Source of the DNA: Candidatus Versatilivorator sp.
GTDB lineage: Bacteria > Acidobacteriota > Terriglobia > Versatilivoradales > Versatilivoraceae
Length of the DNA: 64,000 bases
Direction: 5' to 3'
Assembly: GCA_965198125.1 (NCBI GenBank)
Contig: CBDAOQ010000003.1
Location: 3,407,953-3,471,952, forward strand
The position numbers were made by a program, and so were the translations under genes. The notes beneath the pieces were generated by a model that made no database searches, had not been told where the DNA came from, and worked only from the letters and a program-made list of their open reading frames with translations. Each line of letters starts with the position of its first letter. Positions within the stretch are counted from its first letter, which is position 1. Of the stretch, positions 4,284 to 64,000 are shown piece by piece.

Positions 4284-5552
4284 ATGGAGAATGTCAAAAA
4301 GGACGTGTTGGACAATGGGCTCACGGTTCTCACCGAGCGCATGCCTCACGTCCGTTCCGTTTCCATGGGGGTCTGGGTGAAGACGGGCTCCCGCAGCGAA
4401 ACCCCTGAGTTGAACGGTGTGGCTCATTTCGTCGAGCACCTGCTGTTCAAGGGTACCCGGCGGCGCACGGCCGAAGAGATTGCCAAGGAGGTGGACTCCA
4501 TCGGCGGCCACCTGGATGCCTTTACGGGCAAGGAAACCGTCTGTTACAGCGCCAAAGTCCTGGATGACCACCTTCCCCTGGCCTTCGATATTCTGTCCGA
4601 TCTCGTGCTCAATCCCCGGTTCGATCCCGACGAGATGGAGCGGGAACGCTCGGTGGTTCTGGAGGAGATCAAGATGGAGGAGGACATTCCGGACGATCTG
4701 GTTTGCGAGATCTTCACTCAGAACTTCTGGAAGAATCAACCTCTGGGACGGCCGATCCTGGGAACCAGCCAGACAGTCAGCCGCCTGGACCGAGACAGGG
4801 TGGCCGATTTTTTCCGCGAGCACTACACTCCGGACCAACTGGTGATCTCGGCCGCGGGCCACCTGGACCACCGCAACATCCTGGACCTGGCCTTGCGGCA
4901 TTTCGGCCACCTGGAACGCCGGTCGAACGGACGAGCCCTGGCTCCGGCCAAACCTTGCAATCCCATCTCATTGCGCACCAAGAAAGAGCTGGAACAAGCC
5001 CACGTTTGCCTGGGTGTTCCCGGCTGCGCCCTCGCCGACCAAAACCGGTTCGCGTTCTACCTCTTGAGCACGATCCTGGGTGCCGGCATGAGTTCCCGGC
5101 TCTTTCAGAACATCAGGGAAAAACAGGGCTTGGCCTATGCCATCTTCTCGGGGTTGAGTTCATTCCGGGACACCGGCTGTCTGTTGGTCTATGCGGGAAC
5201 CTCTCTGAAAAACGTCGGAAGGGTGGTGAGTTCCATTGTGCGGGAGTTGCGTGATCTTAAAGAGCGTCAAGTGGGAACCGAGGAACTGCGGCGAGCCAAG
5301 GATCACATGAAGGGGAGCCTTTTGCTGAGCCTGGAATCCAGTTCCAGCCGCATGTCCAACCTGGCGCGGCAGGAACTCTGTTTCGGGGATTACAAACCGC
5401 TGCAGGAGACGATACTGGATATCGATCGAGTTTCCGCAGATGAAATTCAGGCCTTGGCCCATTCGGTTTTTGACACTCCTCAGGTGGCTCTCACCGTGCT
5501 GGGCAACCTGGATGGAGTCCGGTTTACCCGTGCCGACCTGGATTGCGGATGA
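4284..5552 (+). CDS. M16 family zinc peptidase (insulinase/pitrilysin-like)
   Basis: Inverted zinc motif HFVEHLLFKG (HxxEH) near the N-terminus; 422 aa; coding-like composition. Confidence 0.85.
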   Translation: MENVKKDVLDNGLTVLTERMPHVRSVSMGVWVKTGSRSETPELNGVAHFVEHLLFKGTRRRTAEEIAKEVDSIGGHLDAFTGKETVCYSAKVLDDHLPLAFDILSDLVLNPRFDPDEMERERSVVLEEIKMEEDIPDDLVCEIFTQNFWKNQPLGRPILGTSQTVSRLDRDRVADFFREHYTPDQLVISAAGHLDHRNILDLALRHFGHLERRSNGRALAPAKPCNPISLRTKKELEQAHVCLGVPGCALADQNRFAFYLLSTILGAGMSSRLFQNIREKQGLAYAIFSGLSSFRDTGCLLVYAGTSLKNVGRVVSSIVRELRDLKERQVGTEELRRAKDHMKGSLLLSLESSSSRMSNLARQELCFGDYKPLQETILDIDRVSADEIQALAHSVFDTPQVALTVLGNLDGVRFTRADLDCG

Positions 5553-5679
5553 GCGGTCAGCCGAGGCAAGGTCAAGGCCGGTCAGGGATTTCAGGTAACG
5601 TTGAAGGAAAGGCCGCGGCGCTGGCGGACGGTCCTCAGGCGATGCATGCAAGTTTTCCGCGGTGAAGCCGGACGGGGCA

Positions 5680-6459
5680 ATGGTGGCGGTTACCGTTTCA
5701 ATACTGGGCAGCGGGAGTTCCGGCAACTGTACCTTCATTGCCACCGGAAGAGTCAAGCTGCTTCTGGATGCCGGATTCAGTCGGGCCCAGACGGCCAGGA
5801 GGCTGTTGGCCATCGGAGAATCGCTGGAAGACATCGATGCCCTGGTCATTTCACACGAGCACTCCGACCACGTCAAGGGCTTGGCGGGGCTCCTGAAGAC
5901 CTGTGATATTCTCACCTTCGTCGGAGAGGCGACTTACGAGGCGCTTTCACTCAAGCCTGTGCTGAAGAGGAGGGAATGCCTCAGGGCCGGAGAGTCGTTT
6001 CAGCTTGGCGACGTGACGATTTCCCCGTTTTCCGTTCCCCACGACGCTGCCGACCCCCTGGCATTCAACCTGGAAGCCGAGGGAATCAAAATCTCTCATG
6101 TGATGGACCTGGGCGTCCTCACCGAATTGGTGCGCCGCCGAATGGCGGGAAGTGACCTGCTGGTCCTGGAATCCAACCACGACCTGGAAATGTTGCGTCT
6201 CAGTCCCTACCCCTGGGCGGTGAAGCAACGAATCATGAGTCGTCATGGCCATCTTTCCAACGAAAGCGTCGGGAAATTCTTTGAGGAGGACTTTGACGGC
6301 AAAGCCGCATACATCCTGCTGGCTCACCTGAGCGAGAACAACAACCACCCCGATATCGCACGCATGGTCGCCCGCAAAGCCTTGGAAAAGAGAGGGTTTG
6401 ACTTGGATAATCTGCTCTTGGCCTCTCGGTCCGGTCCGAGCCGGGTCATCCACCTTTAG
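5680..6459 (+). CDS. MBL-fold metallo-hydrolase (YycJ/PhnP-like)
   Basis: HEHSDHVKG (HxHxDH) metallo-beta-lactamase motif; about 260 aa. Confidence 0.8.
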   Translation: MVAVTVSILGSGSSGNCTFIATGRVKLLLDAGFSRAQTARRLLAIGESLEDIDALVISHEHSDHVKGLAGLLKTCDILTFVGEATYEALSLKPVLKRRECLRAGESFQLGDVTISPFSVPHDAADPLAFNLEAEGIKISHVMDLGVLTELVRRRMAGSDLLVLESNHDLEMLRLSPYPWAVKQRIMSRHGHLSNESVGKFFEEDFDGKAAYILLAHLSENNNHPDIARMVARKALEKRGFDLDNLLLASRSGPSRVIHL

Positions 6460-6541
6460 GTCTCTCGAAGGCTGGATTGCCTGCAGGTCAGCCTGGCCGG
6501 GCCTCCGGGGCCGTGGTCGCTTTTCAGGAGGATCCTCCACC

Positions 6542-7837
6542 GTGATTGAGCGTTACACCCGTCCCCGCATGGGGCAGATCTGGACTCCGGAAAACAAGTT
6601 CCGGAAATGGTTGGAAGTGGAGCTGGCCTGTGTGGAGGTCCTGGCTCAGCGGGGCGTGATCCCCGGGGATGCGGCTCGGGTGATTCGGGAAAAGGCCGAC
6701 TTCGACGTGTCCAGGATCGATGAAATTGAGCGCGAGGTCAAACATGACGTGGTTGCCTTCACCACCTCGGTGGCCGAGCACGTGGGGCCGGAGTCCCGCT
6801 ATGTTCACTACGGTCTGACCTCCTCCGACGTGGTGGATACGGCCCTGGCTCTGCAACTCAAGGAAGCTTCGGAGATTCTGACCGAAGGGCTGGCCGAGTT
6901 CCTGAAGGTACTGGGAAGGCGTGCCCATGAGTTCAAGAGAACGGTCATGGTGGGCCGGACTCACGGCATTCATGCCGAACCGACCACGCTGGGCCTCAAG
7001 CTGGCCGTGTGGTACGAAGAAGCCCGCCGCAATCAGAGGCGGCTCCAGGCCGCGGCTGAATGCGTTCGTGTGGGAAAGTTGTCCGGAGCCGTCGGGACCT
7101 TTGCCCACCTCGATCCCACGGTGGAGGAATCCGTTTGCCGCATCCTGGGACTGCAGCCCGACCCGGTTTCAACCCAGATCGTGCAGCGCGACCGGCATGC
7201 CGAATATCTGTCGGCGCTGGCTCTGATTGCGGCCAGCCTGGAGAAGATCGCTACCGAGGTCCGGGGGCTGCAGCGCACCGAGGTTCGTGAGGTCGAGGAG
7301 TACTTCTCAGCCGGGCAGAAGGGCTCTTCGGCGATGCCGCACAAAAGGAATCCCGTAACCTCCGAACAGATATCCGGCCTGGCCCGGGTGGTGCGCTCCA
7401 ATCTGCTGGCAGGCCTGGAAAACATCACGCTTTGGCACGAGCGGGATATTTCCCACTCGTCGGTGGAGCGTGTGATTCTGCCGGATTCAACCATTCTGGT
7501 CGACTATCTGTTGGCCAAGACCACGCGACTGCTGGAAAGACTGCTGGTCTATCCGGAGCGCATGGTGGAGAACCTGAATCTGATGAAGGGATTGATCTTT
7601 TCCGGCCAGCTTCTCCTCGACCTCACTCGCAAGGGCGTCAGTCGAGAGGAGGCCTATCGATGGGTGCAGCGAGACGCCATGCGCGTCTGGTCGGAGAGGG
7701 CGGAATTCAAGAGCCTGGTCCTGCAGGACGAGGAGATTCTCCAACATCTGTCTCCCTCCGAGATCGAAACCAGCTTCGATCTGGAGCACCAGTTGCGCCA
7801 CGTGGATGCCGTATTCGAGCGTGTTTTCGGTGGGTGA
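6542..7837 (+). CDS. purB: adenylosuccinate lyase
   Basis: GTG start giving (M)IERYTRPRMGQIWTPENKF, the canonical PurB N-terminus; fumarate-lyase family length. Confidence 0.9.
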   Translation: MIERYTRPRMGQIWTPENKFRKWLEVELACVEVLAQRGVIPGDAARVIREKADFDVSRIDEIEREVKHDVVAFTTSVAEHVGPESRYVHYGLTSSDVVDTALALQLKEASEILTEGLAEFLKVLGRRAHEFKRTVMVGRTHGIHAEPTTLGLKLAVWYEEARRNQRRLQAAAECVRVGKLSGAVGTFAHLDPTVEESVCRILGLQPDPVSTQIVQRDRHAEYLSALALIAASLEKIATEVRGLQRTEVREVEEYFSAGQKGSSAMPHKRNPVTSEQISGLARVVRSNLLAGLENITLWHERDISHSSVERVILPDSTILVDYLLAKTTRLLERLLVYPERMVENLNLMKGLIFSGQLLLDLTRKGVSREEAYRWVQRDAMRVWSERAEFKSLVLQDEEILQHLSPSEIETSFDLEHQLRHVDAVFERVFGG

Positions 7838-54706: not shown

Positions 54707-56539
54707 ATGGACAGTTCACACGCCAATTCGACCACGCTGCGCACCATCCGCGCCAACCTTGATCTCACCCAGGAGCAGCTCGCCGAGCGGCTCGGTGTCT
54801 CTTTCGCCACCGTCAATCGCTGGGAAGGCGGATTGGTAACGCCCCAAAAGGCAGCTCGGGAGGCCATCGCCGCGCTGGCTGCCGAAGCCGGAGTCGACGC
54901 CCAGGAATCCGTTGCGGAACCCACCGAAGCGGCGGCGCGCGTGACCCGCCGGCGGTCCCGCCGGCGCCGGACGGCTGCTCCTTCCACCAAACCCATGGAG
55001 CAGATGCTGTGGGACGCGGCCTGCTCCATCCGCGGGGAGAAAGACGCGCCCAAGTTCAAGGACTACCTGTTGCCGCTTCTTTTCCTCAAACGCCTTTCGG
55101 ACGTCTTCGACGACGAGATCGATCGCCTGGCCGAGGAATTTGGAGACCACGAGGTCGCGCAAGAGATCGCGGAGAATGACCACGATCTGCTGCGCTTCTA
55201 CCTGCCGCCGGAAGCCCGCTGGGGAGTCATCAGCGGACGCGAAACTCACCAGTGGCCCCTCGACGACCACGGGCGAAGCACGCGGCCGCACGACATCGGC
55301 GAGCATCTGACCCGGGCGGTGCGGGTGGTCGTGCGGCAGAATCCCTCGCTTTCGGGCGTCATTGACCTCGTCGATTTCGCCTCCGAGCGCAACGGCGAGC
55401 GCGACCTCAACCCGGCCAAGCTCGCCGACGTGGTCGAGACCTTCTCCGATTCCCGATACCGGCTCGGCCTGGCCGACGTGCAGCCCGACTTCCTGGGACG
55501 CGCCTACGAGTACCTGCTCCGCAAATTTGCCGAAGGTTCCGGCCAGAGCGCGGGCGAGTTCTTCACCCCCACCGAGGTCGGCTTCCTCATGGCCCACCTC
55601 ATGCGCCCCAGGCCCGGCGAGGACTGCCACGACTATGCCTGCGGCTCGGCCGGTCTGCTGGTCAAGCTCGAACTGGTCGCGCGCGAACTCGACCCCACCA
55701 GCCGCGTGCCGCTCAAGCTCTGCGGCCAGGAACTGCAGGCCGAAAGCTACGCCGTCGCCCACATGAACGCCGTCATCCACGACATGGAGGTGGAAATCGC
55801 CCGCGGCGACACCATGATCAACCCCAAGTTCAAGACCCCATCGGGCCAAATCGCCGACCACGACATCGTGGTCGCCAATCCCATGTGGAACCAGCCCTTC
55901 AGCCCGGACCTCTTCGCCAATGACCCCTTCGACCGCTTCCGCACCCGGGGCGGCGTCACCACCGGCAAAGGCGACTGGGCCTGGCTCCAGCACACCCTGG
56001 CCTGCCTCAACCAGCGCGGGCGGGCGGCGGTGGTGCTCGACACCGGCGCAATGACCCGCGGCTCCGGCAGCAAGCATGAGGACCGGGAGCGCAACATCCG
56101 CAAGTGGTTCGTCGAGCGCGACCTCATCGACGGCGTCATCCTGCTGCCGGACAACCTCTTCTACAACACCAGCGCCGCCGGCGTCATCGTGGTGCTGTCC
56201 AAGCGCAAACCGGCCGCGCGGAAGGACAGGATCGTGCTCCTCAACGCCAGCCGGCGCGTGCGCAAGGGCCGCCCCAAGAACTACATCCCGGAGGAGGACA
56301 TCCGTCCCCTGGCGGCGGCCTTTGCGAAAGGCGAGCCGTTGCAGGGCGAGGTCGCCGTCATCACGCGCGAGCAGGCGGAACAGGCGGACTACAACCTCAG
56401 CCCGAGCCGCTGGGTGGGGCAGGCCGAGGCCGTCGCTCAGCGACCGATTAGGGAGATCATTGCCGAAATGCAGCGCCTCGATGATGAGGCCCGAGAGGTC
56501 GATGCGCGCCTGGCGGAAATGTTAGCACGACTGCAATAG
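54707..56539 (+). CDS. hsdM: Type I restriction-modification N6-adenine DNA methyltransferase subunit M with N-terminal HTH (XRE-like) domain
   Basis: N-terminus [21 protein letters not shown] is an HTH. HsdM N-terminal domain. AdoMet site FFTPTEV. Catalytic NPMWNQPF region; 610 aa. Confidence 0.85.
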
Positions 56540-56574: not shown

Positions 56575-56946
56575 ATGGGAGCGACGCAGGTAACGGTCAG
56601 AATCACCAACCCCGCGGAGCCGGACAGGTTTTGGGAGGGGTTGTTTCTGGTGGATATCGGGGCCACCGATTCCCTTGTCCCCAGACAGCATCTTGAGGCT
56701 ATCGGCCTCCAGCCCAGGGGCCGAAGGACTTACGAGCTTGCCGACGGCAGTGAACTCGCCGTCGACGTCACGGTGGCGGAGATAGAGTTCATGGGCGAGG
56801 TCATCGGCGGGACGGTGATATATGGCGAGTCCAACGCGGAGCCGCTGCTGGGCTTAACGGCGCTGGAATCCGTGGGCATTGAGGTGGACCCGGTGAGCCA
56901 GCGGTTGAAGAGGCTGCCGGCCGTGCGGCTCAAGGGGCTGGTGTGA
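56575..56946 (+). CDS. retropepsin-like (clan AA) aspartic protease
   Basis: FLVDIGATDSLVP matches the D(T/S)G(A/S) active-site context of retroviral-type aspartyl proteases. 123 aa; stop overlaps the hsdS start (ATGA). Confidence 0.55.
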   Translation: MGATQVTVRITNPAEPDRFWEGLFLVDIGATDSLVPRQHLEAIGLQPRGRRTYELADGSELAVDVTVAEIEFMGEVIGGTVIYGESNAEPLLGLTALESVGIEVDPVSQRLKRLPAVRLKGLV

Positions 56947-58205
56947 CGACAAGGGAGACAACCCGCCTTGCGGACATGTGCGACCTGACAGCGGAGCCGG
57001 TAAGGCCCGGCACTCGGCCGGAGGCACTCTATCTCGGTCTGGAGCATCTTGCTTCCGGGCGGCTTGTTCGAATTGGCGGCGGTCGGGCGTCAGAGATGCG
57101 AAGCACCACATCCGCGTTTCAAGCCGATGACGTGCTGTACGGAAAACTCCGTCCGTATCTCGACAAGGCCATATTGGCTGACGAGCCGGGTGTCTGCACG
57201 ACGGAACTGCTCGTACTCCGGGCCAAGGCCAACGTAGACCCTCGATTCCTCGCTGTATTTCTTCATTCTCGTGGATTCCTCGAGTATGCGGTTGCGGGAA
57301 CAACGGGTGTCCAGCATCCAAGGACGTCATGGGCACACATTCGAGAGTACGTGCTCCCTGCCCTCACGTTAACTGAACAGCAACGAATTGCCGACCTACT
57401 TTGGCTTGTGCATGGGGCAATCAGCCGGTCAGAGAAGCTGGTCGACGAAGGCCAAGCCCTCAAGCGCGCCGCCATGCAAACACTGTTCACGCGCTGCCTG
57501 CGCGGCGAGGCTCAGAAAGAAACCGAGATCGGCCCGGTGCCGGAGAGTTGGGATATTGCGCCAATAGCCTCAGTCGCTAGGGTGAAGGGTGGAAAACGAA
57601 TGCCCAAAGGCGTTGCTTTGACAAATGAAGATACCGGAAAGCCCTACATCCGCGTAACGGATTTCAGGGACCATGGAGTGGATGTTAATCAGTTGCTGTT
57701 TGTACCAAGGGGTTACGAGTCGACGATATCACGCTACATCATCTCCATCGACGACGTGTACATCTCGATTGCCGGGACCATTGGCCTAGTCGGACAAGTT
57801 CCACAGGTTCTTGATGGTGCGAATCTGACCGAGAACGCTGCGAAAATCTCGTTGATCGATCAAAGCGTAAACACACGTTTCTTGATGTACGCACTTGCCT
57901 CAGATACCTGCCAATCGCAGATCGCACAATCTACAGCTACGAACGCACAGCCGAAGCTCGCACTGGTTCGTATAGAACAGATCCAGTTACCAATTCCTCC
58001 GACATTGGACGAACAGAACGAGATCGTCGCCATTCTCGACGCCATCGACCGCAAGATCGACCTGCACCGCAGGAAACGTGCCGTCCTCGACGATCTGTTC
58101 AAGGCACTCCTTCACAAGCTGATGACGGGTGAAATCCGTGTCGCAGATCTGGGTCTGTCAGCGCTAAGGGAAACGGCCTTATCTTCACAAACTTTTAGCG
58201 GCTAA
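56943..58205 (+). CDS. hsdS: Type I restriction-modification specificity subunit S
   Basis: Two target-recognition domains with conserved spacers (YLGLEHL, DVLYGKLRPYLDK, second TRD and LFKALLHKLMTGEIRV). Confidence 0.8.
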   Translation: MTTRETTRLADMCDLTAEPVRPGTRPEALYLGLEHLASGRLVRIGGGRASEMRSTTSAFQADDVLYGKLRPYLDKAILADEPGVCTTELLVLRAKANVDPRFLAVFLHSRGFLEYAVAGTTGVQHPRTSWAHIREYVLPALTLTEQQRIADLLWLVHGAISRSEKLVDEGQALKRAAMQTLFTRCLRGEAQKETEIGPVPESWDIAPIASVARVKGGKRMPKGVALTNEDTGKPYIRVTDFRDHGVDVNQLLFVPRGYESTISRYIISIDDVYISIAGTIGLVGQVPQVLDGANLTENAAKISLIDQSVNTRFLMYALASDTCQSQIAQSTATNAQPKLALVRIEQIQLPIPPTLDEQNEIVAILDAIDRKIDLHRRKRAVLDDLFKALLHKLMTGEIRVADLGLSALRETALSSQTFSG

Positions 58206-58244
58206 GCTCGTCTTCACGATTTGAGTTTACAGGAAGAATAGCTC

Positions 58245-61200
58245 ATGGATTTTCCCGATCTCCCACATCTGCGACAGCTTCAGAAAGACTTATGGCAATG
58301 GCCCAGTTCTCGTGCCACGGTCATGGTCGGAGCCGGGTTTAGCCGAAATTCAGTGCCTTTGCCTGGCGTGAGCACGAGCTTCCCAACTTGGCCTGAATTG
58401 GCCCAGGCCATGTTCGATGAGATTTACCCCGCATCGCCGAACGAGACAGCGGAACAAAAGCGAAGCAGAGAAAAACAATTCGACCGCAGTAACGCGCTCA
58501 GACTTGCCAGTGAATACGCGGCGACATTTGATCGCCAGAGACTTAAGTCCTTAATCCGCACAAGGATCCCTGATATCGATCACCAGCCGGGCAAAATTCA
58601 CAACCTGCTTCTCCAACTCCCATGGAAAGACGTCTTTACAACAAATTACGACACGCTTCTTGAGCGAACGGAGGTGCCGGGAAGGGTATATCAACCGGTG
58701 ACAACGGTACCCGAACTGACAACCGCGATTTCTCCAAGGATCATAAAACTACATGGCTCGTTTCCTTCCCTGACGCAATTCATCCTCACCGAAGAGGACT
58801 ACCGGTCTTACCCGAAAGACTTTGTGCTGTTTATCAACACCGTTCGCCAGTCACTGATCGAAAACACCTTCGTTTTAGTCGGCTTTTCGGGCGATGATCC
58901 GAATTTTTTGCAATGGACCGGTTGGATTCGGGATGAGCTTGGTAGTAACCATGCCCCTATCTATTTGGTCAGTCCTTTGTCATTAAGCAACGTGCAACGT
59001 TCGCTTCTCGCAAAACGGGGAGTAAAACCCATTGATCTCTCTCCCGTATTTTCGAGCAAAAATCGACCAGAAAGAATTCATGCATCCGCTGTCGAATGGT
59101 TTCTTCGCACTTTACTGGCAGCAAAGCCCCAACGACCGGATGCGTGGCTTAAAACCAAGAGGAGTGCCGCGGGAAACGCTGAGTTTGAACCTCCGATTCT
59201 TGTCAGCGGCTTCACCGAACCGGAAAAAGTTGATTTATCCGGCAGTTCTCAGAGTCCTCTGGACGAAGCTACCGTAATAAAGGTCATCAAGCGATGGCGT
59301 TTTGAGAGGAATCGTTATCCGGGATGGTTGATTCCAACGAACGAGATAAGATCTTTGCTTTGGCACGAAACGGGAGACTGGATAACGCCCCTTATCAAAT
59401 TTGCCGAAAACTGGCCGCCGGCCGATCGTCTTTTACTTTTTCGTGAGATTAACTGGCGGCTTGAAGTATCAATGATCCCGCTTTTTTCTGACTGGATAAC
59501 TCCGTTTGAGTCAGCAGTTGATGATCTATTTCCCAGCCTTAAAGATGGGATACCCATAAAGCCATCGGTCAAGGCAGTGAGGCCCATAAATGTTTCGAAT
59601 ACGGAAGTGCCTGAAGCGTGGCTGGAAATCGCCTTTGCGCTACTCCGCGAATCACGAGAAGACTATCACTCGGAGCGTTGGAACGCGTTCAATAACAAGA
59701 TTGGTCAAGTTGTAGGCAATTACCCGCAATTCACCGACAAGAATTATTACGAGCAGGCTTTATGGAGGATATGGAACATAGAGAGAAACCAAGCCAACGA
59801 TGTGCTTGCAAAATGGTCGCCTTCACCACATTCGCCCCTCGCCGTAATGTGGAAGGCAGGGCTTCTGGCCGAACTCGACGATTTAAACGAGGCGCGCTCT
59901 CTTCTACGAACCGCACTGCGAGAAATCAGAAAATCTCTCCATAACTCTCAAGGACGCAATATTGATCTGCTCTCGCTTGAAGGATGGTGTGCGTACTTAT
60001 TATTTACAAGCACGCTTTCGCTGGAAGGATCTGAAGGGCGGCAGCTCCAGGAAGAGTTCTCAGAGCGATGGCAGGAATTGGAAGCATGGGACTGTAGCCC
60101 TTGGCCGCTTAAGCAGTACTTCGACGCAATACTGTCGAAAACTCCACCCATCCCCCAAAAGCCAAAACAAATCGTCCGCAGCTTCGATCCCGGGCGTAGG
60201 ACTATCACTCACCATATTGGAAGTACCATAGGACCGTGGCTGCCCGCATTTGCTTGCATCCGGTTATACGAACAGGTTGGCATCCCCTTACACTTGCGCT
60301 GCTTCAACCTTTCAGGAAGCGCGCTGAGAAACGCGTGTAAATGGGTAGCTCCCTTCACCGGCTTCTGGAGCCCGGCACTTCTTATTCGTGCCGGTAAAAG
60401 AGACGATCTGACAAAGCATGACATTATGAATCGTGTGCAAGTTGCCGCGATGAAACCGGATCTTGCGAGAAGCCTGAACAAATGGGCGATGCGCGCATTG
60501 AAACGCGAGATTTCGTCTCTGAGCGGAAACGTTACACGGACATCCGGTCAAGAATCATTACTGGAAGTACTGCCTGAAGTCTTGTCAAGACTGGCGTTCA
60601 AGTTGGAATCGTCTGATCTCCAAGAGGCGTTTTCCGTGGCCTTGGGGCTTCATGCGCAACCTGGTATCGCCAGTAATATCAGCCTTCATCGATCGTGTAA
60701 ACCTTGGTTTGAGCGATTGTTTGAAGCCGCTGATGACAGACAACTTCTCGTATGGCTTCCCGAATTGATTCAGTTTCCGCTAAGTGTTGGAGGTGTTGGA
60801 AGTGATCGACTCTCGAATCCGTATCCTCACCCTTGGCCTGACCCGATGACACATTTTCCAATAGAACGATTACGTATTGCCGATGACTTGTCTTCCGAAC
60901 TTGAAGCTGAAATTAATGAGTCAACTGAGTGGCTCTTGGAGCGTGCCAAGAGCGAACTGGGCGAAGAACGTTGCAGAGCAATGATGCGTCTCATTGACCT
61001 TTTCGACACCAAACTAATGACGGAGGAACAAAGAAATCGTCTAGGTGCATTGCTATGGGAGAAAACCAGCGAATACGGTTTGCCTGATTTGCCGGATCTT
61101 AACTGTTTCAGCTACTTGCATTTACCCTCGCCTGAAAAAGTTGATGTCGTCTCGAAAGTTAATGCACACATACTTAACATCGCGCCAATTCGGTCCGTAT

Positions 61201-62129
61201 CAATTGACACCAAGGGAACGATCTCCATATCAAGACAAGCAACGGCAGATCCGATGATTTTTAATGCGGCATTTGCTTCAAAGGCCGCCGTTAATATTCC
61301 CTACGAACCGACGGGGATCATTGAATGGAGTTGGGACGAGGCGAAGAAACTGTGGGAAAGATCGAAAGAATGGTGGGATAACGAAAAAATCGCGTTGTCC
61401 ATCGAGAAGTCTTCACCCTTTCTTGGGACCGAGCATATATCAGACAATCTTGAGAGGGTGGGTACGTTTTTGGCACGAGCCGTATTGCCAAAAATGGACT
61501 CGGCAAGTGAGGATGAATGGAACAGTGTGCTTGCGTTTTTTTCCGAGACTCGGAAACGCGGAGTGTATCTGACCACGGTATTACCGTACGTCCTTCTCCA
61601 TCGTTCCAGCGAAAGAGAGAAAGTTATTGAAACGGTTCTCGATGACCTGTCTTCAGATGATGAGAAGGCTGTACAAGCGAGTGCAAGAGCTATTCGGCAT
61701 TGGGTTCATTTAGCCGTCGCGGGGTTTTTGGACATTCCACCGAAAACAGTGATTGACGAATTGATACGGCGGGTCGTATTCAGGCGACCTGAAGGGACCC
61801 AGACTTGCTTGCATCAATTGGCAGTTCTCCTAATCGAAAAACCCGATTTCGTCAATTCTGGACAAGTGAATCTCGTTGTTGCGAGTATAACACCATGGAG
61901 TCAGGCAACCTGTCTTCCGCTCTCCGAAGAAAGGAATGGCGATTTTCCTGAAGAGGAAAGACCCGAAATTCGCGCTCTTCTCGGAAGGTTGGCCTCTGCG
62001 CTCAGCATCTGGCTGAAGAAGAGAATTCCCAATCAACCAGAACCCCCGGGAATTTCTCGTTTGAGGCAATCGTACAAATCAGACCCTCTCCCAGAGGTTC
62101 GACGAGCTTTTGACACATGGAAGCAATGA
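58245..62129 (+). CDS. SIR2-domain (DSR2-like defense-associated sirtuin) large protein: N-terminal SIR2 NADase-like domain plus about 1000-aa helical C-terminal region
   Basis: VMVGAGFS (Gly-rich NAD loop), TTNYDTLLE with Asn134, IIKLHGS with His170, VGFSGDDPNF. The Asn/His positions match the catalytic N133/H171 spacing of DSR2. GC about 50%, below the flanks. Confidence 0.75.
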   Translation: MDFPDLPHLRQLQKDLWQWPSSRATVMVGAGFSRNSVPLPGVSTSFPTWPELAQAMFDEIYPASPNETAEQKRSREKQFDRSNALRLASEYAATFDRQRLKSLIRTRIPDIDHQPGKIHNLLLQLPWKDVFTTNYDTLLERTEVPGRVYQPVTTVPELTTAISPRIIKLHGSFPSLTQFILTEEDYRSYPKDFVLFINTVRQSLIENTFVLVGFSGDDPNFLQWTGWIRDELGSNHAPIYLVSPLSLSNVQRSLLAKRGVKPIDLSPVFSSKNRPERIHASAVEWFLRTLLAAKPQRPDAWLKTKRSAAGNAEFEPPILVSGFTEPEKVDLSGSSQSPLDEATVIKVIKRWRFERNRYPGWLIPTNEIRSLLWHETGDWITPLIKFAENWPPADRLLLFREINWRLEVSMIPLFSDWITPFESAVDDLFPSLKDGIPIKPSVKAVRPINVSNTEVPEAWLEIAFALLRESREDYHSERWNAFNNKIGQVVGNYPQFTDKNYYEQALWRIWNIERNQANDVLAKWSPSPHSPLAVMWKAGLLAELDDLNEARSLLRTALREIRKSLHNSQGRNIDLLSLEGWCAYLLFTSTLSLEGSEGRQLQEEFSERWQELEAWDCSPWPLKQYFDAILSKTPPIPQKPKQIVRSFDPGRRTITHHIGSTIGPWLPAFACIRLYEQVGIPLHLRCFNLSGSALRNACKWVAPFTGFWSPALLIRAGKRDDLTKHDIMNRVQVAAMKPDLARSLNKWAMRALKREISSLSGNVTRTSGQESLLEVLPEVLSRLAFKLESSDLQEAFSVALGLHAQPGIASNISLHRSCKPWFERLFEAADDRQLLVWLPELIQFPLSVGGVGSDRLSNPYPHPWPDPMTHFPIERLRIADDLSSELEAEINESTEWLLERAKSELGEERCRAMMRLIDLFDTKLMTEEQRNRLGALLWEKTSEYGLPDLPDLNCFSYLHLPSPEKVDVVSKVNAHILNIAPIRSVSIDTKGTISISRQATADPMIFNAAFASKAAVNIPYEPTGIIEWSWDEAKKLWERSKEWWDNEKIALSIEKSSPFLGTEHISDNLERVGTFLARAVLPKMDSASEDEWNSVLAFFSETRKRGVYLTTVLPYVLLHRSSEREKVIETVLDDLSSDDEKAVQASARAIRHWVHLAVAGFLDIPPKTVIDELIRRVVFRRPEGTQTCLHQLAVLLIEKPDFVNSGQVNLVVASITPWSQATCLPLSEERNGDFPEEERPEIRALLGRLASALSIWLKKRIPNQPEPPGISRLRQSYKSDPLPEVRRAFDTWKQ

Positions 62130-62457
62130 GGGTAGAGGGTATCCATGAACCTTGATGCAATCTGAGCGTTGGCCCGAACCGGCGAATCTGACACGCCGGA
62201 GTTCAAGGCGACGACCCAGACGAGTCGAGAGGCAGCCACGATGGGTTTCCCCTTCTTGAACAATCACGGCGGGCAGGCGCTGTTCGGTGTGACGCCGCAC
62301 GGTTGTGGTTAGCTGTTGGGTCAGCGGGCGGACCATCAAGGAATTGAGCGCCGAGCGTCGGCGAAGCACCCCCCCGGACTTCCCGACGGACGAACGGGTC
62401 CGCGTGGACGGCGACCGCGAAGTCATTGTCGAAGCGAACGCGACCCCAAGAGAATAA

Positions 62458-62790
62458 ATGATGATTCCGGACGTTGCCGAGCGGGCTGCTGAACTGGAAC
62501 AACTCTGCCGGGACCACCATGTCTGGCGGCTCGACCTGTTCGGTTCGGCCGCAGCCGGACGGTTTCAATCTGAAAGGAGCGACCTCGACTTCCTTGTCGA
62601 TTTCCACCCGCTTCCTTTCAGCGACTACGCCGACGCTTACTTCGGCCTGCTAGCCGCGCTGCGACAACTTTTTGAACGGCCTGTGGACCTTGTCGTTCGC
62701 GCTGCCATTAAAAATCCTTACTTCTTGCAATCAGTGGAGCAGACGAGGACATGCGTTTATGAAGCTCGAAGCCAAGAAATATCTGTATGA
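62458..62790 (+). CDS. nucleotidyltransferase (MNT/MntA-type antitoxin-like, Pol-beta superfamily)
   Basis: LFGSAAAGRFQSERSDLDFLVDF (GSxxxGxxxxxSDxD NTase motif); 110 aa. Confidence 0.7.
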   Translation: MMIPDVAERAAELEQLCRDHHVWRLDLFGSAAAGRFQSERSDLDFLVDFHPLPFSDYADAYFGLLAALRQLFERPVDLVVRAAIKNPYFLQSVEQTRTCVYEARSQEISV

Positions 62791-62878
62791 CAACCTGGGA
62801 CAGGCCACCACGAATTCACGGGGGCAGTTGCGGCGCGGGGTCTGCCGGAGGGAACAAGGTGGGAATGCTCAAGGATGA
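62759..62878 (+). pseudogene. truncated HepT (DUF86)-like toxin remnant overlapping the MNT stop
   Basis: Begins MKLEAKKYLYDNL like HepT N-termini but terminates after 39 aa; probably degraded. Confidence 0.3.
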
Positions 62879-62917: not shown

Positions 62918-64000
62918 ATGCCGCCCGTTTATTATCACGAGGGCAGATTCCCGCCCGAGGAGCGCCTCGACTGGTCCAAGCTGATCCCGCTCATCGGCCG
63001 TGCCAGTGCTGCGGTGGCTCGCTACGACGGGATGCTCGGCGCCACCCCTGACCCCGATGTTCTGCTCTCCCCGCTGACCACCCGCGAAGCTGTACTTTCC
63101 TCACGCATCGAAGGCACCCAGGCCACCATGGGTGAAGTACTCGAGTACGAGGCCGGACAAGAACCCGATTCTCCCGCACGTCGGGAAGACATCCACGAGG
63201 TTATTAACTATCGCTCGGCCATGCGGCAAGCGGAAAAAATGCTGAAAGATCTGCCACTGTCCCTGCGGGTTATTCGCGAGGCCCACAAGGTACTAATGAG
63301 CGGCGTGCGGGGCGAGGGAAAGTCGCCAGGTGAGTTTCGCCGGGTCCCCAACTGGATCGGACCGCCCGGCTGCACGGTCAGTCAAGCCACGTTTGTGCCG
63401 ATCCGGGCAGACAAACTTCCCGAGGCAATGGGTGCGTGGGAGCGCGATATCCACCGCGCTGCGCCCGACCCCTTGGTACAACTCGCAATCCTCCACGCTG
63501 AATTCGAGGCGCTGCATCCGTTCCTGGATGGCAATGGCCGCCTCGGGCGCATGCTGGTGCCTCTTTTCCTGTGGCATGCCGGCCTCATCAGGGCCCCCCG
63601 GTTCTACATCAGCGCCTACTTCGAAACCCGCCGCGATGCCTATTACGACGGTTTGCTTGCCGTCTCCCGAGACGACGACTGGACAGGGTGGTGCCAGTTT
63701 TTCCTTGAGGCGGTATGGGTCCAGGCTGAGGAGAACCTGGCCAAGGCCCAAGGCATTATTGATCTCTTCGGCCGTATGAAGCAGCGGGTGGCGGAGTTGA
63801 CCCGCTCGCAGTACGCCTTTCGTGCTCTGGATTGGATTTTCGCGTATCCGATTTTCACCAGCACCCACTTTGTGCAGGGTGCAGGCATCCCGGAGCCCAC
63901 GGCTCGCCGGTTTCTTCGAGTGCTGCGAGACGGGGAGATTCTCAAACTGGCTAAACCTGGCGTTGGCCGACGGGCCAGCATGTTCCTTTTTCCGGCTCTC
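62918..64000 (+). CDS. Fic family protein (AMPylase-like), 3' end beyond window
   Basis: Fic motif HPFLDGNGRLGRML (HPFx[DE]GNGR) at about residue 170. Open to the window edge, so it is absent from the ORF track. Confidence 0.85.
   Translation, partial: MPPVYYHEGRFPPEERLDWSKLIPLIGRASAAVARYDGMLGATPDPDVLLSPLTTREAVLSSRIEGTQATMGEVLEYEAGQEPDSPARREDIHEVINYRSAMRQAEKMLKDLPLSLRVIREAHKVLMSGVRGEGKSPGEFRRVPNWIGPPGCTVSQATFVPIRADKLPEAMGAWERDIHRAAPDPLVQLAILHAEFEALHPFLDGNGRLGRMLVPLFLWHAGLIRAPRFYISAYFETRRDAYYDGLLAVSRDDDWTGWCQFFLEAVWVQAEENLAKAQGIIDLFGRMKQRVAELTRSQYAFRALDWIFAYPIFTSTHFVQGAGIPEPTARRFLRVLRDGEILKLAKPGVGRRASMFLFPAL

Follow-up and report, generated by a model that had tools for sequence, protein, structure and literature searches.

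We report that a gene at positions 58245..62129 of a 64,000-nucleotide stretch of Candidatus Versatilivorator sp. DNA (Acidobacteriota; contig CBDAOQ010000003.1; the whole stretch is called the window below) encodes a protein that, judged by its sequence, belongs over its full length to the Dsr2 family of anti-phage defense-associated sirtuins, as a divergent member. It adds to a known defense family, and the system is not of a new kind. The gene is real, intact, and well conserved. Its open reading frame (ORF) runs uninterrupted from ATG to stop on the forward strand, as do all window features given below, and yields a product of 1294 amino acids (aa). A Shine-Dalgarno-like hexamer, AGGAAG, was read from the sequence at 58231..58236, 8 nucleotides (nt) 5' of the ATG. 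The ORF signal is far beyond chance, since the family-model E value is about 1e-218 and more than 100 full-length homologs are 50 to 92% identical to the window protein. The protein probably acts as sensor and effector in one chain, in which binding of a phage protein by a helical solenoid frees a SIR2 NADase, which depletes nicotinamide adenine dinucleotide (NAD+) and aborts infection. Computed here are the intact ORF, its operon position, the predicted folds of the SIR2 domain and of the helical sensor, conservation of the catalytic residues, and membership in the family over the full length.

The DSR2 family was defined by Gao et al. 2020, according to Garb et al. (bioRxiv 10.1101/2021.12.14.472415). 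Membership of the window protein was indicated by two models. The PADLOC Dsr2 model, PDLC02184, matched aa 7-1259 to profile positions 11-1190 of 1222 (E = 1.8e-218), and the NCBIfam equivalog NF041819 ("anti-phage defense-associated sirtuin Dsr2," 1215 positions) matched aa 7-1266 to positions 6-1193 (E = 3.9e-220, 734 bits). The curated equivalog cutoff of NF041819 is 1400 bits, and the window protein is thus a Dsr2 family homolog that the equivalog rule of the Prokaryotic Genome Annotation Pipeline (PGAP) would nevertheless not name Dsr2. A tblastn search against plasmids recovered WP_017895821.1 of Clostridium tyrobutyricum, a protein of 1246 aa that is 27% identical over aa 8-1204 (93% of the length; E = 3e-110). 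That protein is named Dsr2 by PGAP and scores 1486 bits on the PADLOC Dsr2 model. The window protein resembles Dsr2 proteins of this kind in architecture, in length class, in collinearity over nearly the whole protein, in the catalytic motifs of an N-terminal SIR2_2 domain, and in the combination of sensor and effector in one gene; both are also found in mobile or defense contexts. The window branch differs in coming from metagenome genomes of Acidobacteriota and Chloroflexota and in being embedded in type I restriction-modification (R-M) operons. The earlier note on this DNA had described the protein as longer than typical DSR2. This did not hold up, as models of 1222 and 1215 positions and the 1246-aa PGAP-named protein make 1294 aa an ordinary Dsr2 length. 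In other respects the reading in that note was largely borne out.

Dsr2 is a large family. The C-terminal 1014 aa, searched alone, matched 1371 representatives of 50%-identity clusters at an E value of ≤1e-3, and 456 of them at ≤1e-30. Neighboring genes vary among the Dsr2 loci and no conserved partner gene was seen, with the exception of a naturally split SIR2/sensor form described below, which is the pattern of a single-gene system. A blastn search of complete E. coli genomes with an Enterobacteriaceae homolog (L003) gave no match. Viral contigs were scanned for relatives of the window protein and none was found, so there is no sign in that set of a phage-borne Dsr2 gene. The result extends a catalogued anti-phage family into little-studied soil and sediment lineages of Acidobacteriota and Chloroflexota.

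The effector domain comprises aa 1-293 (58245..59123) and was delimited from Pfam, the family profile, and Foldseek. It is the best-conserved segment of the protein (mean column entropy, 1.72). Pfam detected only SIR2_2, PF13289, at aa 130-263 (E = 5.5e-20), and no other Pfam domain in the remaining ∼1000 aa. The four SIR2 motifs that the earlier note had read from the translation are all present at the positions it gave. By sequence position and conservation, these are the GAGFS loop, an NAD-binding glycine motif, at aa 29-33 (58329..58343), and VGFSGDDPNF at aa 212-221 (58878..58907). Between them lie TTNYD, which starts at aa 132 and holds the catalytic Asn134 (codon at 58644..58646), and KLHGS, which starts at aa 168 and holds the catalytic His170 (codon at 58752..58754). 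The proposed register of Asn134 and His170 with DSR2 was likewise confirmed. In a HMMER alignment to the Bacillus subtilis protein, Asn134 and Asp136 correspond to Asn133 and Asp135, and His170 corresponds to His171; mutation of the aligned B. subtilis residues abolishes defense (Garb et al., bioRxiv 10.1101/2021.12.14.472415). All three catalytic residues are conserved down to 24% identity. In alignment A3, which holds 55 family sequences with identities down to 24%, the invariant positions are G29, G31, S33, T132, N134, Y135, K168, G171, G213, F214, D218, N220, and F221. His170 does not vary in alignment A2, and its conservation in A3 is 90% or higher. A SIR2 fold had been expected at the N terminus, and SIR2-only DSR2 chains indeed matched the predicted fold in Foldseek with template modeling (TM) scores of 0.75-0.81 and root mean square deviations (rmsd) of 4.2-5.1 Å.

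The generic relationship to the SIR2 superfamily is all that speaks for a protein deacylase of the classical sirtuin type, with a regulatory function and no link to phage. We consider this very improbable. The Pfam match is to PF13289 and not to the deacetylase family PF02146, and aa 1-280 contain no Cys, so the Zn-ribbon module of classical sirtuins is absent; on these two grounds an assignment as a classical deacetylase was rejected. Beyond the domain itself, the protein matches a defense family over its full length and its gene lies in a restriction operon beside toxin-antitoxin-type genes.

A related question is which NAD-consuming chemistry the domain carries out. A profile of 55 family members aligned positions 13-294 with residues 28-295 of B. 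subtilis DSR2 at an E value of 3.6e-15, and the S. equi ThsA protein scored slightly better, at 4.9e-17; the PADLOC ThsA model gave 6.4e-23. The SIR2 domain is therefore about as close to that of the Thoeris protein ThsA as to that of DSR2. An assignment to ThsA and Thoeris was tried and rejected. ThsA models match the SIR2 part only (∼73-221 of 478 positions), Pfam finds no SLOG domain in the window protein, and no TIR-domain ThsB gene lies alongside, the neighbors being hsdM, protease, hsdS, and nucleotidyltransferase genes. The equal closeness to ThsA and DSR2, a fold that supports several NAD-consuming chemistries, and the fact that sequence alone cannot tell a hydrolase from a transferase together leave some space for a different use of NAD, in which the SIR2 domain would ADP-ribosylate a phage or host macromolecule or would make an NAD-derived nucleotide signal in place of depleting NAD+ in bulk. 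Such a role appears quite improbable to us. The closest characterized relatives, DSR2, ThsA, and KomC, are all annotated or shown as NADases, and the loci examined have no conserved adjacent partner gene able to read a signal. A NAD+ glycohydrolase is accordingly the activity that would be expected for aa 1-293.

The effector is followed by a variable, probably disordered linker at aa 294-340 (59124..59264), recognized by model confidence, by column entropy, and as the split point of two-gene forms. The predicted local distance difference test score (pLDDT) is below 50 across much of aa ∼303-336, and column entropy is the highest of all segments. The rest of the protein, aa 341-1294 (59265..62126), is the putative sensor. 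The earlier note had called the C-terminal ∼1000 aa leucine- and tryptophan-rich, probably HEAT-like, and devoid of an enzymatic motif, and each of these descriptions was borne out: Leu makes up 11.9% and Trp 3.7% of the residues, and the predicted structure is helical. AlphaFold2, run with an input alignment of 72 sequences, modeled aa 281-1294 with a mean pLDDT of 82.4 and a predicted TM score of 0.75, nearly all in helix, and aa 1-1200 with a pLDDT of 80.9. The model shows about 40 helices and a few short hairpins over aa 341-1294, and many Trp and Arg residues there are invariant in the homolog alignments. With the C-terminal model alone as a query, the best PDB folds in Foldseek were importin-13, CAND1, CRM1, and Kap121 (E values of ∼4e-5, TM scores of 0.15-0.27). 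The C-terminal ∼950 aa are thus confidently predicted to form a helical, HEAT-like solenoid without an enzymatic domain.

The linker is a genuine domain boundary, because sensor-only proteins of 940-985 aa begin there and, in the three contexts examined, have a separate SIR2 gene upstream. About two dozen such proteins are found among the 148 best representatives. Within this set, all N-terminally extended proteins carry SIR2, no sensor was seen with another effector, and the sensor is linked only to SIR2, either fused to it or with a SIR2 gene immediately upstream. The idea that the sensor might be used without SIR2 was dropped, as all three contexts examined (P0216, P0238, and P0126) have a separate upstream SIR2_2 gene. 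Two of these are the split loci L008 (3102-6949) and L009 (1420-5344), which each have a SIR2 gene of 343-346 aa that overlaps a sensor gene of 939-963 aa by 4-8 nt. The L008 pair covers PADLOC Dsr2 profile positions 10-293 and 311-1220. In the third context the assembly looks frameshifted, and SIR2 is a 226-aa fragment ∼300 nt 5' of the sensor gene. Directly downstream of the split Dsr2 of L009, on the opposite strand (5354-7466), are genes for a Macro-domain and a TIR-domain protein, a further cluster of NAD/ADP-ribose-related defense-type genes.

The characterized protein with which the family must be compared is the 1005-aa DSR2 of B. subtilis 29R, which depletes NAD+, is activated by the SPR tail tube protein, and is inhibited by DSAD1 (Garb et al., bioRxiv 10.1101/2021.12.14.472415; PMC11850899; PMC11087589). 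It forms a tetramer with a central SIR2 core, and the tail tube, DSAD1, and tetramer properties are all described for the Bacillus protein alone (PMC11850899, PMC11087589); structures include PDB 8WY8, 8K98, 8WKX, and others. The two proteins share a homologous SIR2 domain with Asn and His in register and a common layout of SIR2, linker or middle region, and helical solenoid. They differ in length, the window protein being ∼290 aa longer, and in the linker, which is mixed alpha/beta in B. subtilis DSR2 (PMC11850899) and a low-confidence, variable stretch in the window protein. A single-sequence search against B. subtilis DSR2 gave a match confined to the SIR2 domain (aa 110-272, E = 6.5e-11). 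In Foldseek, the top 43 PDB matches of the aa 1-1200 model were B. subtilis DSR2 chains over the full target (E values of 3e-13 to 1e-9), with TM scores by target of 0.29-0.50 and rmsd of 11-23 Å against the full chains. By these models, the sensor has the overall architecture of B. subtilis DSR2; a specific homology was not detected. The likeness to DSR2 that the earlier note proposed for the catalytic residues stood for the SIR2 domain, by sequence and by predicted fold; sequence similarity stops at the end of that domain. Of the two, B. subtilis DSR2 is the short, divergent form.

The mechanism that we favor can be laid out as follows. The SIR2 domain would be a NAD+ glycohydrolase held inactive by the rest of the protein. 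The ∼950-aa solenoid would serve as the sensor and bind a protein made by the phage. As in B. subtilis DSR2, the SIR2 domains probably sit together in an oligomer, and on binding they would open up and hydrolyze NAD+. The infected cell would then run out of NAD+, and phage replication would abort. For NADase activity, autoinhibition, oligomerization, phage-protein activation, and abortive infection, this scheme draws on the family and on work with B. subtilis DSR2 (bioRxiv 10.1101/2021.12.14.472415; PMC11850899; PMC11087589).

Several observations weigh against it or against parts of it. The NF041819 score, at about half of the equivalog cutoff, marks the window protein as belonging to a divergent branch. 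Its sensor showed no sequence similarity to the middle and C-terminal domains (MID and CTD; residues 299-1005) of B. subtilis DSR2 in either the single-sequence or the 55-sequence profile search. The C-terminal model ranked generic HEAT proteins (karyopherins) first, and no DSR2 chain was in its top 50. On this ground, tail tube sensing and the tetramer geometry are extrapolations. A tail tube trigger is not simply transferable to the window protein, since sequence similarity ends at the SIR2 domain. Finally, a constant type I R-M slot in one subclade, described below, leaves room for a functional coupling to restriction. The name DSR2 covers two rather different proteins, and all of the mechanistic and structural work concerns the short one from Bacillus. 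What triggers the long form is a testable question, since its sensor has no detectable sequence relation to the Bacillus sensor.

The gene is located in a type I R-M operon, which the earlier note did not mention. The window order is hsdM, a protease gene, hsdS, a 39-nt gap, the Dsr2 gene, and an MntA-like gene. The hsdM gene (54707..56539) encodes a type I methyltransferase with an N-terminal helix-turn-helix (HTH) domain (Pfam N6_Mtase, E = 8.4e-73; HsdM_N; HTH_3). The hsdS gene for the specificity subunit is at 56943..58205 (Pfam Methylase_S, E = 8.3e-25; PADLOC Specificity_I, E = 4.8e-71). A consensus scan from hsdS to Dsr2 found no promoter-like or terminator-like site, and the Dsr2 gene is probably cotranscribed with hsdM and hsdS. 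The same arrangement is found in L001 and L002, both from Candidatus Versatilivoraceae (Acidobacteriota), whose Dsr2 proteins are 89% and 81% identical to that of the window, respectively. In L002, the Dsr2 gene is followed by a Fic-domain gene and then hsdR. In L001, hsdR starts ∼0.8 kb past the stretch that matches window positions 63776-64000, and by synteny with L001 the hsdR gene of the window probably lies just past the window end.

Four independent metagenome contigs, L011, L012, L013, and L014, extend this pattern. In a neighbor-joining tree, they group in one clade with the window, L001, and L002. The gene order is hsdM, hsdS, Dsr2, DUF4926/PIN, and hsdR in L011; hsdM, hsdS, Dsr2, a 445-aa gene, DUF1016, and hsdR in L012; and hsdM, an ATPase gene, DUF4276, hsdS, Dsr2, MntA, HepT, and hsdR in L014. 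The Dsr2 gene is 3-40 nt 3' of hsdS and before hsdR in the window, L001, L002, L011, L012, and L014, with hsdR placed by synteny for the window and L001 and seen directly in L002, L011, L012, and L014, as well as in L020. The remaining clade member, L013 (6220-11542), has an intact 1292-aa Dsr2 (66% identical) between decayed hsdS-like and hsdR-like remnants, and has the look of a type I R-M operon that has decayed except for its Dsr2 gene. Of the flanking ORFs in L013, one (220 aa) is integrase/Methylase_S-like and the other (218 aa) matches HsdR weakly; smpB adjoins. The hsdM genes of the clade fall into two groups that are only 46-47% identical to each other. The Dsr2 gene has probably been carried in the hsdS-hsdR slot since the subclade ancestor, as one of several defense or toxin genes there.

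Embedding of defense genes in type I R-M operons has already been described, for PrrC, for TgvAB, and in the "guilt-by-embedding" survey of Payne et al. Dsr2 was looked for among the embedded systems in the supplements of Payne et al., with no relevant match. PrrC of EcoprrI, TgvAB of Vibrio cholerae VPI-2, and the Payne et al. candidates resemble the present case in that an effector gene lies between hsd genes and is probably cotranscribed with them; the proteins themselves are unrelated to Dsr2. PrrC sets a precedent for a type I operon-embedded effector that is triggered by inhibition of restriction (PMC12707154). By analogy, the window protein might be a guardian of its R-M system, with a solenoid that binds or monitors the HsdM/HsdS/HsdR complex and a NADase that fires when restriction is disabled by a phage anti-restriction protein of the Ocr, ArdA, or Stp type, and not in response to a phage structural protein. 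The fixed slot in one clade suits this idea, as does its retention although the hsdM genes fall into two groups, and hsd genes adjoin Dsr2 in five or more other branches (L020, L029/L030, L044/L051, L057, and L091), with the Dsr2 stop overlapping hsdR by 21 nt in L020.

We nonetheless consider a guardian role unlikely, on the following grounds. No hsd gene was detected within 6 kb in 53 of the 67 family loci that have at least 2.5 kb of upstream flank, where the count of hsd associations is a lower bound because the hsd models were built from few seeds. R-M linkage is also absent from the sister branches L007, L015, and L016. Genomes of Caldilineaceae and Bryobacteraceae and a Clostridium plasmid carry stand-alone relatives. 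Many relatives lie away from type I R-M genes, some beside other defense or toxin-type genes (L007, L016), some on a plasmid (L010), and some between metabolic or regulatory genes (L004/L015, L005). PrrC, in contrast, is found almost only embedded; the window gene shares with it the position between hsd genes and lacks the near-exclusive association with R-M, the Dsr2 family being mostly stand-alone. In L013, the Dsr2 gene is intact and only remnants of the R-M genes are left. The same slot also houses Fic, PIN, DUF1016, and MntA/HepT genes, all of them unrelated, in keeping with a general hotspot for insertion (Payne et al.), and pairing with two different hsdM groups speaks against a specific protein partner. 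There is a correspondingly slim chance that the Dsr2 protein of this subclade, in place of sensing a phage protein independently, is a type I R-M accessory whose solenoid monitors the Hsd complex or anti-restriction proteins and that turns failed restriction into NAD+ depletion, within an hsdM-hsdS-dsr2-hsdR unit; if so, it would be the SIR2 counterpart of PrrC. The stable hsdS-hsdR position in this subclade offers a concrete case in which to ask whether embedded defense genes are merely coregulated with restriction or cooperate with it.

The low-GC Dsr2 gene had been thought to be horizontally acquired, and our analysis supports this on compositional and phylogenetic grounds: its composition is foreign to the window, the GC content of its orthologs stays at ∼0.49-0.50 across hosts that differ in GC, and close relatives are scattered across different phyla. 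The GC content of the gene is 0.493, against 0.608 for the whole window, and GC at third codon positions (GC3) is 0.495, against 0.80-0.86 in the neighboring hsdM and protease genes. The orthologs in L001, L002, and L004 have a GC of ∼0.49-0.50 and a GC3 of ∼0.46-0.50 at a locus GC of 0.59, and the L007 gene has the same values at a locus GC of 0.51. The Bryobacteraceae copy (L005) has a GC of 0.60. These values suggest that the gene spread recently from a source of lower GC and has ameliorated in some lineages. Flanks common to the window and L002 show that the island is older than the split of these Versatilivoraceae genomes.

The other genes of the operon show several features of their own. 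A clan AA aspartic protease gene lies between hsdM and hsdS at 56575..56946 (NCBIfam TIGR03698, 75.3 bits, above the cutoff). Its product is a retropepsin-like protein of 123 aa, it overlaps the hsdS start by 4 nt, and it is kept at the same place in L001 (98% identity) and L002 (84%). The XRE-type HTH of HsdM (HTH_3/HTH_31, aa 10-58) is fused to HsdM_N and N6_Mtase and may serve in autoregulation of the operon. The same fusion is found in the L011 hsdM (83% identical) and is absent from those of L012 and L014. In L014 (3805-5608), the genes between hsdM and hsdS encode an AAA_15/AAA_21 ATPase and a DUF4276 protein, which with Dsr2 and MntA-HepT makes three embedded cassettes in one operon.

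The region downstream of Dsr2 is less regular. Three short ORFs in different frames lie at 62169-62457, after the Dsr2 stop and before the nucleotidyltransferase gene, and may be what is left of a gene; the match of the first to Schlafen/AlbA_2 is weak and does not reach the cutoff (E = 0.0055). A 269-aa ORF at 16029-16838 of L001 is a candidate for the intact counterpart of that gene. The MntA-like nucleotidyltransferase gene at 62458..62790 (Pfam NTP_transf_2; PADLOC PDC-S09, E = 3.5e-32) carries a PDC-S09 label that appears to derive from the guilt-by-embedding survey. Within 62458-62878, this gene is intact, and the frame of its HepT/DUF86-like partner breaks after KKYLYD in comparison with L001, so that the HepT toxin half is apparently disrupted in the window. 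The nucleotidyltransferase module is present twice in L001, and the corresponding slot of L014 holds an intact MntA-HepT pair. At 18594-20444 of L001, the duplicated module and a DDE transposase gene widen the distance between Dsr2 and hsdR to ∼8.5 kb, compared with roughly 2.7 kb inferred for the window; the slot is actively rearranged.

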